A DNA stretch of 64,000 nt from assembly GCF_003790525.1 (NCBI RefSeq), contig NZ_CP033635.1. One strand, given 5' to 3'. The translations under genes and the position numbers were made by a program. Shown piece after piece: positions 10,401 to 14,306 of the stretch (positions are counted from its first letter, which is position 1; each line of letters opens with the position of its first letter). Under the pieces are notes generated by a model. The model saw only the letters and a program-made list of their open reading frames with translations. It was not told where the DNA came from and searched no databases. The DNA is from Escherichia coli (lineage in GTDB: Bacteria > Pseudomonadota > Gammaproteobacteria > Enterobacterales > Enterobacteriaceae).

Positions 10401-10667
10401 TTACAGTTTATTCAGAATAAGGCATGCGGCCTGGTTTAATGCAATAAACTCCTGCCAGCTGTACTGAGACTGATAATTCAGTAAATACTGGTCTTCAACC
10501 CGGCAAATCTGTGGGCGTTTATCATAAATTGCACACAAATGAGAATCAGTCTGATAGTAACGGCAAATACCGTCACCACGATCCAGACATTGCGTTTCAC
10601 CCGCCCTGTTGACATGACGACAACAGGCCCCACACTGGTTACAGGGAAATGGAGGGTGTAATTTCAT
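10401..10667 (-). CDS. YkgJ-family cysteine-cluster protein (putative Fe-S/Zn binding)
   Basis: 88 aa with CNQCGACC...C...C...C pattern; start overlaps stop of upstream gene (ATGA), implying translational coupling. Confidence 0.55.
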   Translation of the reverse strand: MKLHPPFPCNQCGACCRHVNRAGETQCLDRGDGICRYYQTDSHLCAIYDKRPQICRVEDQYLLNYQSQYSWQEFIALNQAACLILNKL

Positions 10668-12235
10668 CGCTTATTTAACCAGTCACGAACAGAAGCCACA
10701 TTTCCTGACTCAAACGGCAACGCAATCCCTCGTCGGCGGACTTCTTCTCTCAGCAGAAGTCCGCGCTCTATCTCACTGTTTACGCTATCCAGATGAAGTG
10801 AAAAATGATTTAACTCGGCAGCATCAACAGAAAATTCCAGTGCAGTAAGTTCCACAAGATAGCGATCAAGTTCAGCATTGACTGCCTGAAAGTATTCCAG
10901 TGACCGCTGGAATTTGTCCTTAAATTTGTCCAGAAATGCCCATACCCGCTGCATAACCTCGCTATATTCGAGATAATAATTCATCACCAGCCCGAGAATA
11001 CCTGTCGTCAGCGCACCACAAAAGGCAGCAAGCTCTGAACCAAATGGGAAAATAAGGATCTGCGCCATCGCCTCATTTATCATCACCCCTCCGGCAACAG
11101 CCACACCTGCTGCTATCAGTTTAGTGACCGCTTTGGCTAACTGCCCCGGCGATAATCCCTCCGGATTAAATACCAGGACTTTAAAGGCCTGAACGAGATT
11201 GTTCCACATTTCCCTGATAAGCCGGACAATCATTCTTTCCGTTGTCAGGAATATATTTAACAGCGTTGTGGTAATACCTGACAGTATCCCTCCGATGACA
11301 CCATCTTTAAAGGCAATTAAAAAAGAACTGAATTTTTCCTGTACTCGTTCCTGGCAGGCACGTAATGCTGACGTTATTTCGGACAGGCATTTGCCGGCGC
11401 TGAATGAGTTCCGTTGCTGCCTGATAATATGCGGGATTCGTTCCCTCAGTTCGAACCAGATCTCGGCAAGAATAAGCCCCAACATCTGTCGCGTCCCCAT
11501 ACGAAAACCGGAATTAAGCGAAGCACTGGCGACAGCAGTAGCAAACTTACTACTCAGGTAATAGCTCTGATTAATCGTGGCCTCATATTTTTCCCGGGCA
11601 TATTTATCAGCCCTTTCCATACGCTCAGTATCTGCATCAGCTTTTTTTCTCAGACTTATCAGACGTTTCTTTTCCTTTTCTGTCAGCGTTGCCTGAGATT
11701 CAAGCTCTGCTATCTGCCTTAACGTATCTTCTCTGTTTTTCTGCAGCGTGCAAATAAACGCATCCATTGAGTCTGCTTTCTTTGATTTATTGAGCGACTC
11801 ATGAGTGAATGCCAGATTTGAAGCGTCATTTGCCAGTTCTGCACCATCCCGTTCAGCAAGAATTCTCCCCGGATCATCATGAATTTCTTTAGCGGAAATA
11901 ATATGATCCAGATTTTTTTTGTCGTCAGAAGCAAACACCTCGCCTGTATATGCATCAGTAAGAGTCCCTGCCTGATGCGCACGCTTTCCTTCCCGGTTCG
12001 TCGCGATATAGTTCTCATGGCTGTGGTAATGATGAGAATCATATTCGCCACGACCTTCATACCGCTGTCGCTCAGCCTCCGTGGCATAAATGCCATTACG
12101 CACATTATGGATAGTGTCAACATCACCACCCTTACGATCATTTAGCAACAGAAAATCCAGCCCGAATGATGTAACCAGGCTCTTCACCATGGTCTGATGT
12201 AACTCTTCTGTCCAGTCAAATTTTTCCACATTCAT
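10664..12235 (-). CDS. hypothetical 523-aa protein: N-terminal HNH-like motif, coiled-coil, multi-pass hydrophobic C-terminal half
   Basis: NLDHIISAKEIHDDPGR...N...NLAFTHESLNKSK resembles His-Me finger spacing; KEKKRLISLRKKADADTERMERADKYAREKY coiled coil; hydrophobic stretches VIGGILSGITTTLLNIFL and LIAAGVAVAGGVMINEAMAQILIF. Confidence 0.5.
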   Translation of the reverse strand: MNVEKFDWTEELHQTMVKSLVTSFGLDFLLLNDRKGGDVDTIHNVRNGIYATEAERQRYEGRGEYDSHHYHSHENYIATNREGKRAHQAGTLTDAYTGEVFASDDKKNLDHIISAKEIHDDPGRILAERDGAELANDASNLAFTHESLNKSKKADSMDAFICTLQKNREDTLRQIAELESQATLTEKEKKRLISLRKKADADTERMERADKYAREKYEATINQSYYLSSKFATAVASASLNSGFRMGTRQMLGLILAEIWFELRERIPHIIRQQRNSFSAGKCLSEITSALRACQERVQEKFSSFLIAFKDGVIGGILSGITTTLLNIFLTTERMIVRLIREMWNNLVQAFKVLVFNPEGLSPGQLAKAVTKLIAAGVAVAGGVMINEAMAQILIFPFGSELAAFCGALTTGILGLVMNYYLEYSEVMQRVWAFLDKFKDKFQRSLEYFQAVNAELDRYLVELTALEFSVDAAELNHFSLHLDSVNSEIERGLLLREEVRRRGIALPFESGNVASVRDWLNKR

Positions 12236-12281
12236 GTTATTTCACTTCTTGTAAAGCCGGGCTTTAACGCCCGGTAAATCA

Positions 12282-13361
12282 TTAACTCTGGGATGAAAAA
12301 TCATCAAATTTCACAACCGAACTGGCCAGTACATCATCCAGCTCATCCTTATTAATAACGTTCATTCCATTATCATCCGTTTCCATTTCAATAACGTTAT
12401 CTTTTATCACTGCCTCACCATTTTCCTGTTTCCGCGGTTTAAACAGTGGCGTTGTAATAATATCCGTCATAATAGCGGCCAGTGAATATCCATGGTCAAT
12501 AAGCACAATGACTTCATCTGATACACTGATATCCTGTTGTTCTGTAATAACAGAATGCATGGATTTAAGCGGCTCAAAATAGTGTTTAATAAATACAGCA
12601 TGCATTCTGTTCAGTGCAGCGAGAATTTCATCAACGTATTGATTAACTTTTGCAAAATGCTCCCGGGCCAGATTCATTTTCTTAACTGCCCGTGCAACAT
12701 CGCAGGCACACTGATGGGCATTTTCAAGAGCTTTCGTCGCATGTCTGTCGTAAGCCCAGCCCGCAATGGCAATCAACGGTGCAGCCACTGCGGTGCCTAA
12801 TACCATTGCGCCGCCGGCCATTCCCATGCCCCCTGCAGCCAGTGAGCCCCCACCAATTGCCGCCATCGTCGCGTTATAAGCCGCGGCACCAGAAAGCGCT
12901 GCAATGGGTGTACCTGTAGAAGCCGCAGCAAATGCCATCACTCCGCTATACACAGCAAAACCCGCAGCAGCCCCGGAAACTCCGGCAGCAACGACCGTAC
13001 TGAGATATTCTGTCGCTGAAATGGCCAGGTTCTGAATCTTATTGATGTTATGTTGCGGGACACTCAGTTTCAGGTCTTTATTGCCCTCTTTTTCCAGACG
13101 CGCCAGGAGCTCAGCAGCAATCCTGTCGAACTCACTGAAATCTTTACCAATCTCAAGCTCTTTATTTCCGAGCGTTGTTAATTTTGATGATGTCTGAGCT
13201 TCAGCCTGCTCAAATTTTTCTTTATGCTCCTCGTAACGCTCTTTTGCTTTTTCGAGGATATCCTCTGCTTCTGACTTTTTTTGATATCCATCGTAAGCTT
13301 TTTTTCCGCCGAATGCCGCAGCGCCGGCAGCCACACCCAAAATAATAAAAGGTAACGCCAT
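12282..13361 (-). CDS. hypothetical 359-aa membrane protein with glycine-zipper region
   Basis: N-terminal TM (MALPFIILGVAAGAAAFGG), coiled-coil, then long Gly/Ala-rich hydrophobic stretch (GVSGAAAGFAVYSGVMAFAAASTG...GGMGMAGGAMVLGTAVAAPLIAIAGW), acidic C-terminus. Confidence 0.5.
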   Translation of the reverse strand: MALPFIILGVAAGAAAFGGKKAYDGYQKKSEAEDILEKAKERYEEHKEKFEQAEAQTSSKLTTLGNKELEIGKDFSEFDRIAAELLARLEKEGNKDLKLSVPQHNINKIQNLAISATEYLSTVVAAGVSGAAAGFAVYSGVMAFAAASTGTPIAALSGAAAYNATMAAIGGGSLAAGGMGMAGGAMVLGTAVAAPLIAIAGWAYDRHATKALENAHQCACDVARAVKKMNLAREHFAKVNQYVDEILAALNRMHAVFIKHYFEPLKSMHSVITEQQDISVSDEVIVLIDHGYSLAAIMTDIITTPLFKPRKQENGEAVIKDNVIEMETDDNGMNVINKDELDDVLASSVVKFDDFSSQS

Positions 13362-13409
13362 TCTTTTCCTCCTGTACAGATTGCTTTATCATCAGTCAAC
13401 TGAAATATT

Positions 13410-14306
13410 TCAGGAAACATTCTCAGCAGTAAGGTATTTTCCTAACATTGTTAACACGGCTTCTTTCAGCCATACTGGTTCAATAATTTCAACATTCGGT
13501 AGCCAGTATAAAATCAACGGGACAATTTGATTTTTATGTGCAGCCTTGCATGACAGCGTAATGCCATTGTCATGTTTGTGTAGCAATTGCTGGTAAGGAA
13601 GTAAGTCCCGTCGCAAAAAATAATGGGCGATATTACTGTAAATGAACAACACAACATCAAATGTTTTGTCGCTCACCCACGGGTCACATGACTCACTTAC
13701 CAGTGACTGGATTTCATCACTCTTTGCAAACTTTTCTTTTTTTATATCCAGCCATTTTATTTTAGCTAATGAAAACGACTTTAACTTGTTCTCTTCAGTA
13801 GCCAGCAAATACCATATACCTCTCTGATTAGTTAATTTATAGGGATGAACGATTCTGGTCTTACCGGCATATGCAATCTGGCAAACATTACTGTTGCAGA
13901 TCGCTTTTTCAAGAACATCAAGATATTTTCTTAAATCATCCCTGATGGTGTGCTCAGGGTTATGAAACTGAACACGAATATGCCTTTCGGTTGCCCTGTT
14001 TTCTAATTTCTGCCAGAAACCTTCATCCCGTTCAGGAAAAATCGCATCAGTATCCAGTAACCTGGCCAGAGATTTGTGCAGTGATTCTTTGCTCTGGTTT
14101 CCTGCTCTTGCCGAAATAAGCCGGTATTTTCCATCGCCACAGGCTTCAATAAAGGGAGAAAGCATATTCAGATCACGATATGCTGTTCGCTCAGTGATGT
14201 TGTATTTTTTCATCAAATTATAGCGACTGACCACGCCATAATTTTGTAATTCAACAAGGATATCAATCAAACGCTCCGCTGAGCGATTTCTCGTTGAGTC
14301 AACCAT
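13410..14306 (-). CDS. WYL-domain transcriptional regulator (HTH-WYL-WCX, BrxR/CapW-like)
   Basis: N-terminal HTH (ERLIDILVEL...TAYRDLNML), central WYLLA motif, C-terminal LILYWLPNVEIIEPVWLKE; 48 bp upstream of the 359-aa gene, same strand. Confidence 0.65.
   Translation of the reverse strand: MVDSTRNRSAERLIDILVELQNYGVVSRYNLMKKYNITERTAYRDLNMLSPFIEACGDGKYRLISARAGNQSKESLHKSLARLLDTDAIFPERDEGFWQKLENRATERHIRVQFHNPEHTIRDDLRKYLDVLEKAICNSNVCQIAYAGKTRIVHPYKLTNQRGIWYLLATEENKLKSFSLAKIKWLDIKKEKFAKSDEIQSLVSESCDPWVSDKTFDVVLFIYSNIAHYFLRRDLLPYQQLLHKHDNGITLSCKAAHKNQIVPLILYWLPNVEIIEPVWLKEAVLTMLGKYLTAENVS

Follow-up and report, generated by a model that had tools for sequence, protein, structure and literature searches.

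What does a compact cassette of four genes, encoding a transcription regulator, two unusual membrane proteins and a small cysteine-cluster protein, do for the Escherichia coli that carries it? The cassette occupies positions 10401–14306 of a 64-kb stretch of E. coli DNA (contig NZ_CP033635.1; hereafter the window), and the original prediction for this locus was a defence or abortive-infection module under the control of its regulator, resembling no described system. On balance, and by a modest measure, we favor reading the cassette as an anti-phage (anti-mobile-DNA) immune module of the Dionysus family, composed of a three-gene effector core and a facultative transcriptional gate. As judged from sequence comparisons, the core consists of a membrane protein related to DinC of Dionysus, a membrane-anchored predicted HNH nuclease and a small CxxCxxCC protein.

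Organization of the cassette

In the list of open reading frames (ORFs) of the window, the four cassette ORFs all lie on the minus strand and are tightly packed, with the coordinates originally given to them. The genes and domains considered below are the following:

13410–14306, minus strand: transcription regulator of the CapW/BrxR type with helix-turn-helix (HTH), WYL and WCX domains, 298 residues (Pfam HTH_11, WYL, WCX)
12282–13361, minus strand: DinC-like membrane protein, 359 residues (hhalign against DinC, PADLOC PDC-M09A)
10664–12235, minus strand: HNH-membrane protein, 523 residues (family alignment, AlphaFold2 model, PADLOC PDC-M40B)
11741–12127, minus strand: predicted HNH (ββα-Me) nuclease domain of the 523-residue protein, residues ~37–165
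10970–11323, minus strand: hydrophobic region of the 523-residue protein, residues ~305–422 (Kyte–Doolittle scan)
10401–10667, minus strand: CxxCxxCC (YkgJ/YcgN-like) Cys-cluster protein, 88 residues (Pfam PF03692)

The regulator gene is separated from the 359-residue gene by 48 nt, and the latter, which is preceded by a ribosome-binding site (AGGAGG), from the 523-residue gene by 46 nt. The junction between the last two genes reads ...AAT AAG CGA TGA AAT..., so that the ATG of the 88-residue ORF overlaps the TGA of the 523-residue ORF in an ATGA motif; the coupling first proposed for these two genes can be read directly in this junction. Note that the 46-nt gap contains a stem-loop with a 6-bp GC stem (CCGGGC GTTAAA GCCCGG, window 12257–12274, minus strand), which may be an intercistronic element acting on relative expression or mRNA stability.

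A DinC homolog relates the cassette to Dionysus

The 359-residue protein comprises an N-terminal hydrophobic helix, a coiled coil, a Gly/Ala-zipper core (residues ~127–203) that is almost invariant in the family alignment and a C-terminal helical domain; its hydrophobic segments (residues 1–19, 123–141 and 174–199 by hydropathy) and the zipper core agree with its first description as a glycine-zipper membrane protein. The alignment of its family matches DinC over the full length (301 columns) with an hhalign probability of 99.9% and an E-value of 5e-34, and the protein itself is 57% identical to DinC across an 82-residue core (blastp). Both match the PADLOC model PDC-M09A at the same level (3.5e-22 for the 359-residue protein).

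Dionysus (DinA/DinB/DinC) is a Pseudomonas aeruginosa system directed against jumbo phages and validated in a 2025 preprint (bioRxiv 10.1101/2025.09.30.679545), whose Table S1 is the source of the Din sequences compared here. According to its authors, DinA combines a 'MAEBL-like' domain with a transmembrane (TM) region, DinB is TerB-like and DinC resembles α-pore-forming toxins (α-PFTs), with four TM segments. The system protects more than 10^6-fold against phiKZ-type jumbo phages; the cells survive infection and do not take up propidium iodide, early-infection vesicles are lost, foci of DinA and DinC are seen at those vesicles, and AlphaFold3 predicts a membrane complex between DinC and the C-terminus of DinA (bioRxiv 10.1101/2025.09.30.679545).

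The relationship extends to both ends of the operons. The Dionysus locus of a Pseudomonas (locus L088 of our set, 6927–11718) encodes, in order, a WYL-WCX protein, DinA, DinB, DinC and a 98-residue CxxCxxCC protein that is 55% identical to the 88-residue protein of the cassette (E-value 4e-35). In Pseudomonas, Pectobacterium, Comamonas and Phytobacter (L088, L090, L091, L092), a WYL-WCX gene precedes the Dionysus genes and a CxxCxxCC gene follows DinC; the Dionysus-linked CxxCxxCC proteins, whose gene is sometimes uncalled, are 43–59% identical to the 88-residue protein, and the Phytobacter Dionysus regulator is 37% identical to that of the cassette over its full length. The WYL-WCX and CxxCxxCC genes thus look like unrecognized Dionysus components, and the shared gate, DinC-like protein and Cys-cluster protein make the cassette and Dionysus sister systems. 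Moreover, the DinC homologs have the same length and the same position of the Gly-zipper core, and each system has a large partner of ~520–560 residues. The two systems differ in that the large partner carries an HNH domain in the cassette and a 'MAEBL-like' domain in DinA, and in that the DinC-like gene comes first in the cassette. With a DinC homolog, the same WYL-WCX head, the same Cys-cluster tail and matching PADLOC candidates, the original statement that no described system resembles this locus is outdated.

The other two Din proteins have no counterpart in the cassette. The 523-residue protein was considered as a DinA homolog and rejected with both partial and full-length DinA families; DinA had no phmmer match in any of our loci, DinB matched none of them either, and the 48-nt gap between the regulator and 359-residue genes contains no ORF. 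An ORF of 128–145 residues does lie directly upstream of the DinC-like gene, and downstream of the WYL gene where there is one, in six loci of our species set (L016, L038, L045, L050, L052, L078) and in Vibrio cholerae; the versions concerned are those of Vibrio, Oceanisphaera, Moraxella, Mesocricetibacter and Stenoxybacter. In the V. cholerae versions it is placed as follows:

9564–9998 of L082–L085: TerB-like ORF

The Pfam TerB match of this ORF is faint, and both it and DinB weakly match the TerB-like part of DjlA. An identity with DinB was rejected, there being no detectable similarity between the two, and we refer to the ORF as TerB-like, unproven. Shango and Bunzi, which contain TerB, resemble these module versions in this respect.

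A small gene for a 70-residue Zn-ribbon protein, labeled 'WYL' in Table S1 of the Dionysus preprint, has homologs in Pseudomonas that immediately precede the WYL gene of the HNH-type module (L017, L018, L019, L023, L067, L086, L087), which suggests a common hotspot or a shared flanking gene. The Zn-ribbon protein was also considered as a relative of the 88-residue protein; the two have no similarity and it is a different flanking gene.

The large protein joins a predicted HNH nuclease to a membrane region

The 523-residue protein is built of a soluble N-terminal HNH domain, a coiled coil, a hydrophobic multi-helix region and conserved C-terminal helices that end in the family motif LPFE.GN..S.R.WL. 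In the AlphaFold2 model, residues 40–230 have a pLDDT (the model's per-residue confidence) of ~90, and the N-terminal domain displays the ββα-metal fold. It contains a DH...N...N motif with a spacing of nine residues between the asparagines and a helical insert of ~25 residues that separates the His strand from the first Asn. The candidate catalytic residues are D110–H111, N140 and N149: among 107 family members with 25–35% identity, H111, D121, N140 and N149 are invariant and D110 is nearly so. A Kyte–Doolittle scan gives hydrophobic segments at residues 305–330 and 369–422, and the region ~305–422 is predicted to hold three or four membrane helices. Altogether, the invariant H/N/N residues, the model and the hydropathy profile bear out the combination of HNH-like motif, coiled coil and hydrophobic half that had been noticed initially.

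The family of the N-terminal domain comprises 756 clusters at 50% identity. Its architecture was judged on the best 150 matches of a search of a representative library, which all share the same one, nearly all being in proteins of 500–580 residues. Compared with HNH (His-Me finger) nucleases, the domain has the same ββα fold and DH...N...N pattern, the nearest versions being GmrSD_C/DUF1524 and the Cas9-type HNH, and differs by being fused to a membrane region, an unusual arrangement among HNH enzymes. The E. coli protein has no significant match to an HNH model of Pfam or NCBIfam, the best being GmrSD_C (E-value 0.22), a model reached at E ≤ 0.001 by one and at E ≤ 0.1 by eight of the 107 members. 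No significant Pfam family was found for the 359- and 523-residue proteins or for the 24 and 107 members of their families. Profile searches of PDB sequences with the A1 (523-residue family), A3 and A5 (DinA family) alignments returned spurious matches only, and the tripartite α-PFT pores AhlB and SmhB were among the non-significant Foldseek matches.

In PADLOC, the 523-residue protein matches PDC-M40B at 1.3e-42 (144 bits), and the two membrane proteins resemble component B of PDC-M40 and component A of PDC-M09 in PADLOC-DB v2, with scores expected of relatives and not of seed members. Two different candidates are matched, and both entries are predictions, not validated systems; no protein of the region matched a PDC-M40A model, and our literature search returned no paper naming PDC-M09 or PDC-M40.

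Zorya and Kiwa couple a membrane component to DNA attack. The cassette resembles them (ZorAB with ZorC/D, KwaAB) in concept only, as the association of a membrane part with a DNA-targeting activity, and differs from them by the covalent fusion of its predicted nuclease to the membrane region. PADLOC shows no sequence relationship between the cassette and Zorya, Kiwa, Shango or Bunzi.

The Cys-cluster gene is systematically overlooked

The 88-residue ORF matches the Pfam CxxCxxCC family PF03692 (E-value 0.0015, model positions 1–73 of 85) and the YcgN models of NCBIfam at 2e-4, with 21 bits against cutoffs of at least 150. Its cysteines are arranged as C9-x2-C12-x2-C15-C16 followed by C35, C45 and C55, and the seven are kept in 79 distinct homologs, which follow the pattern FPC..CG.CC...LD.GDG.C...C.IY..RP..C.V. 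Together with the name given to the orthologous protein on a Klebsiella plasmid by NCBI's annotation pipeline (PGAP), 'YkgJ family cysteine cluster protein', these features are in keeping with the assignment to the YkgJ family made at the outset. PGAP leaves the ORF unannotated in the E. coli chromosome. The homolog is also missed by the gene calls in V. cholerae and Pseudomonas, where the 523-like gene is followed by a gap (L082–L087). The 88-residue gene, intact in at least 66 of the 80 species loci described below, is thus a systematic annotation gap. It matches no PADLOC model, and in the literature we found neither CxxCxxCC/PF03692 nor YkgJ linked to phage defence.

Three genes form the conserved core

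Conservation was assessed in 80 loci, one genome per species, which were retrieved with the alignment of the 523-residue family and span Gamma-, Beta- and Alphaproteobacteria, Firmicutes and Spirochaetes. Sixty-six of them carry the three genes intact and side by side (tblastn, ORF and hidden Markov model (HMM) searches), in the order 359–523–88 in 62 and 523–88–359 in four, the latter from Firmicutes and Spirochaetes; the other loci are for the most part decayed copies or ends of contigs. Protein identities across the bacterial trio loci range from 30 to 77%. Across these loci, the interval between the 523 stop and the 88 start has a median of −4 nt, which makes translational coupling the rule. 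Such an arrangement goes far beyond chance, and purifying selection clearly acts on the bacterial trio across phyla. Conserved co-occurrence, the test named by the original prediction, is therefore clear for the three effector genes. The phosphoethanolamine transferase, outer-membrane protein and small two-TM ORF genes found nearby are not conserved with the cassette.

In E. coli, cassette DNA is present in 592 of 5426 complete genomes; 373 of these cover at least 80% of the 4.7-kb query, and none of these sites is plasmid-borne. This corresponds to ~7–11% of genomes, always in an island. Homologs occur on 69 plasmids, 23 of them conjugative, and an IncFIB plasmid of Klebsiella has all four genes, of which the WYL gene is interrupted by an insertion sequence (IS) whereas the effector genes are intact.

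This distribution bears on a housekeeping role. The names propagated in RefSeq, 'ATP--cob(I)alamin adenosyltransferase' for the 523-residue protein and 'chemotaxis protein' for the 359-residue protein, are the sole point in favor of a cobalamin-related, envelope-stress or secretion function, but neither name is supported by Pfam or NCBIfam, and the genes are island-bound in E. coli, patchy across species and found on plasmids. We regard such a function as scarcely credible; the distribution effectively refutes it.

The proposed gate, a WYL regulator, is frequent but optional

Pfam identifies HTH_11 (residues 12–49, E-value 0.0014), WYL (residues 128–184, 8.7e-9) and WCX (residues 216–291, 3.3e-7) domains in the regulator, which also matches the PADLOC WYL models at 2.6e-22. 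The order, winged HTH (wHTH) plus WYL plus WCX, is that of CapW/BrxR-type proteins, as had been proposed. Some 55 nt upstream of the regulator start is a perfect palindrome, CTGACA-AATGA-TGTCAG:

14360–14376, minus strand: putative operator palindrome CTGACA-N5-TGTCAG, with arms kept in orthologous loci

The CTGACA arm also reads as a −35-like hexamer and is followed by an A+T-rich, TATAAT-like box. In seven orthologous Enterobacterales loci (L002, L003, L004, L005, L008, L013, L015), both arms are unchanged and enclose a 5-nt spacer that is different in every locus. Operators would be expected to vary in this way, and by this pattern, we infer that the palindrome is the operator of the WYL regulator. 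The cassette thus shares with CapW/BrxR operons (CBASS, BREX and others) a wHTH-WYL-WCX regulator in first position, a conserved palindrome in the regulator's own promoter region and a defence-island setting. It differs from them in its effectors, which are unrelated to those of CBASS or BREX; moreover, Pfam assigns a WCX domain to this regulator, versus WHD_BrxR/BrxR_CTD on the BrxR that neighbors the module in V. cholerae. CapW-type wHTH-WYL-WCX repressors are reported to sense single-stranded DNA (ssDNA) (PMC11662680), and by analogy autorepression released on infection is a reasonable inference for the cassette.

Among the 71 loci that could be scored for a WYL gene with an iterated HMM (seven were left out, their upstream sequence being too short), it is co-directional and directly upstream in 43, divergent and nearby in five and absent in 23. 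A count by tblastn gave ~27 of 80, an underestimate owing to the rapid divergence of the regulators. The core therefore consists of three genes, with the regulator as a frequent but optional head. The proposal that the module is under WYL control, and that the three genes co-occur with the WYL gene, holds in part: the regulator often heads the module but is not obligatory.

The regulator also bears on the possibility of an abortive-infection toxin, in which the derepressed membrane proteins would permeabilize the inner membrane in the manner of an α-PFT, and/or the HNH domain would degrade the chromosome, the cell dying before phage release. Toxic effectors, CBASS among them, are often controlled by WYL repressors (PMC9122588), and the α-PFT-like character attributed to DinC by its authors, the Gly-zipper core with its multiple amphipathic or hydrophobic helices and the AhlB and SmhB matches are consistent with a pore. 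However, Dionysus, the only relative tested, leaves infected cells alive and impermeable to propidium iodide, and the absence of the WYL gene in one-third of the loci, together with its truncation by an IS element on the Klebsiella plasmid, argues against strong constitutive toxicity. We therefore consider a suicidal toxin unlikely; nothing points to the abortive infection or membrane disruption initially envisaged.

The module resides among defence genes

In E. coli strain W2-5, the cassette is part of an integrase-bearing island at tRNA-Phe. Its neighbors in W2-5 and 13P484A are sugar-utilization genes, IS1, a phosphoethanolamine transferase gene, a type I restriction-modification (R-M) system, an AAA-ATPase pair, a MazG-like gene, a thymidylate-synthase pair and a dGTPase-family gene; farther along, the same island contains an antibiotic-resistance block and a CP4-57-like element. 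In V. cholerae, the module is inserted between a rumB-like gene and either BrxR plus BREX or Wadjet plus type I R-M, with SIR2/NERD or DUF6361-helicase genes upstream. Downstream of the Pseudomonas modules lie UvrD, a helicase+MZB pair and a NERD helicase. Among the 20 closest large neighbors in ten further genera, five match PADLOC strongly (two type I restriction endonucleases, LeoA/BC, ZorA and PDC-S49). The defence systems among the neighbors hence include type I R-M, BREX, Wadjet, Zorya and Eleos. The accessory distribution, the plasmid copies and the defence neighbors together are the signature of an accessory immune module, and the defence-type character originally assigned to the locus is upheld in that the module is conserved, mobile and embedded in defence islands.

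Copies in jumbo phages

Full-length homologs of the 523-residue protein, with 30% identity, were detected by tblastn in seven records of the ~260-kb Aeromonas hydrophila phages LAh10, D3, D6 and D9. In LAh10 (MK838116; L093, 3979–6575), a phage assigned to the genus Ludhianavirus, the HNH-membrane gene follows a DinC-like gene (34% identity over 333 residues) as in bacteria, and the HNH protein retains its His and the two Asn residues. The LAh10 pair is not accompanied by a WYL or CxxCxxCC gene, which shows that the 359/523 pair is the functional unit. The phage-borne pair is compatible with superinfection exclusion of competitors and also with non-defence roles that serve the phage.

Two alternatives follow from these copies. 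The module might serve mobile elements, its membrane nuclease destroying the DNA of rival phages, plasmids or integrative and conjugative elements (superinfection or entry exclusion, competition), with the bacterial copy domesticated or hitch-hiking; the adjacent pair, in the same order, in four lytic phages, the 69 plasmid occurrences, the integrase-bearing islands and the rumB-like neighbors in V. cholerae are in keeping with this idea. The idea overlaps with defence, differing mainly in who benefits, but the bacterial versions have host-type WYL regulation and a conserved extra gene that is missing from the phage copies, and we find it quite unlikely as an account of the bacterial module. 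Alternatively, the pair could have a phage-type, non-immune function (host-DNA degradation, membrane remodeling or vesicle handling), the bacterial copies being remnants with another, stress-related role. The phage pair devoid of regulator and Cys-cluster gene and the fact that neither membrane protein has a known biochemical function would allow this. Against it stand the purifying selection on the bacterial trio, its consistent embedding among defence genes and the restriction of the phage records found to one Aeromonas phage genus, which render this role improbable.

A model for the action of the cassette

If the cassette is a Dionysus-family immune module, as we favor, its action could proceed as follows. 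The WYL regulator would repress the operon from the CTGACA-N5-TGTCAG palindrome and, by analogy with CapW, would release it on sensing ssDNA or damaged DNA in the infected cell. A membrane complex like the one that AlphaFold3 predicts for DinC and the C-terminus of DinA would be formed by the DinC-like protein together with the hydrophobic half of the 523-residue protein, and this complex would place the HNH domain at the membrane site of phage DNA entry, or at early-infection vesicles, where the domain would cut the invading DNA. The Cys-cluster protein, made in a fixed ratio with the nuclease through translational coupling, might be a cofactor, an assembly factor or an inhibitor-sensor of the complex. 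Protection would be direct and not suicidal, as reported for Dionysus.

Several points weigh against this interpretation. The 523-residue family is not homologous to DinA (hhalign probability of 0.4% with the full-length DinA family) and the E. coli cassette has no TerB gene; with an unrelated large partner and TerB missing, the function of Dionysus is not simply transferable. The membrane half of the 523-residue protein is modeled by AlphaFold2 with low confidence and its fold searches are uninformative, and HNH folds can be catalytically inactive or RNA-directed. Approximately one-third of the loci have no WYL gene, so that the proposed gate is not general, and the 359/523 pair of the lytic Aeromonas jumbo phages can serve a phage. 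Finally, our literature search found no experimental work on this cassette and no citation of the RefSeq accessions of its proteins, which are not mentioned in the DefensePredictor paper and its supplements or in a domain-centric E. coli screen.

A more specific form of the proposal, which we put forward only tentatively, is that of a membrane-delivered nuclease: the DinC-like protein, together with the hydrophobic half of the 523-residue protein, would insert at the genome-entry membrane or the early-infection vesicle and bring the HNH domain to otherwise shielded DNA, the CxxCxxCC protein being a sensor or licensing factor. If true, this would constitute a new way past the compartment-based protection of jumbo phages, and the copies carried by jumbo phages themselves would be explained as competitor exclusion.

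Other features of the window

Two further elements follow the cassette in E. coli:

10064–10348, minus strand: small two-TM ORF, 94 residues as the longest ORF (65 residues in RefSeq), with two strong hydrophobic segments (ORF list)
10031–10050, minus strand: terminator-like hairpin with an 8-bp stem, five GC pairs and a T-rich tail (consensus match only)

The small ORF, annotated as hypothetical, has homologs only in the E. coli-type loci L001 and L002 among the loci compared by tblastn; it is possibly the last gene of the E. coli transcript, outside the conserved module, and the hairpin is likely the 3' end of the transcription unit. The phosphoethanolamine transferase gene directly downstream of the cassette (window 8338–10011, minus strand) encodes a 557-residue relative of EptA, CptA and MCR that scores far below every curated MCR cutoff.

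On the other side, beside the type I R-M system, a gene for a 540-residue AAA ATPase overlaps that of a 313-residue partner (window 16094–18612, minus strand). The ATPase matches PADLOC PDC-M55A (1e-40), NsnB and AriA, and the partner weakly matches NsnC; the two are probably a second, separate candidate defence pair. The intervals ~18600–25000 and 26000–33000 of the window contain the complete type I R-M system (hsdS, hsdM and an hsdR-like helicase gene), the MazG-like gene, an XRE regulator, a hypothetical gene paired with a thymidylate-synthase gene and a dGTPase-family protein, and several of these island genes resemble known or recently proposed defence genes. The interval ~35000–44000, with a GC content of 56–63%, holds floR, tet(A)/tetR, aph(6)-Id, aph(3'')-Ib and sul2 with remnants of IS and ISCR (IS common region) elements, and is followed by a CP4-57-like region encoding YfjI, YagK/YfjJ, DUF932, antirestriction, RadC and CbtA/CbeA proteins.

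Significance

With a validated sister system and relatives listed in PADLOC, the cassette is not categorically new; its new points are the nuclease fused to a membrane region, the family-wide Cys-cluster gene and WYL gate, and the copies in jumbo phages. The misleading RefSeq names 'cobalamin adenosyltransferase' and 'chemotaxis protein' need replacing. If the cassette defends its host, it would add to the barely characterized Dionysus family a nuclease-armed branch, with copies in about one-tenth of E. coli genomes, on plasmids of Klebsiella and in islands of V. cholerae. The WYL-WCX gate and the small CxxCxxCC gene frame both systems, and neither is part of the published three-gene description of Dionysus. 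The exchangeable large partner, HNH in one system and 'MAEBL-like' in the other, amounts to a natural experiment on the respective parts of membrane or vesicle targeting and phage killing, and the occurrence of the pair in Aeromonas jumbo phages makes phage–phage competition a question that can be tested.

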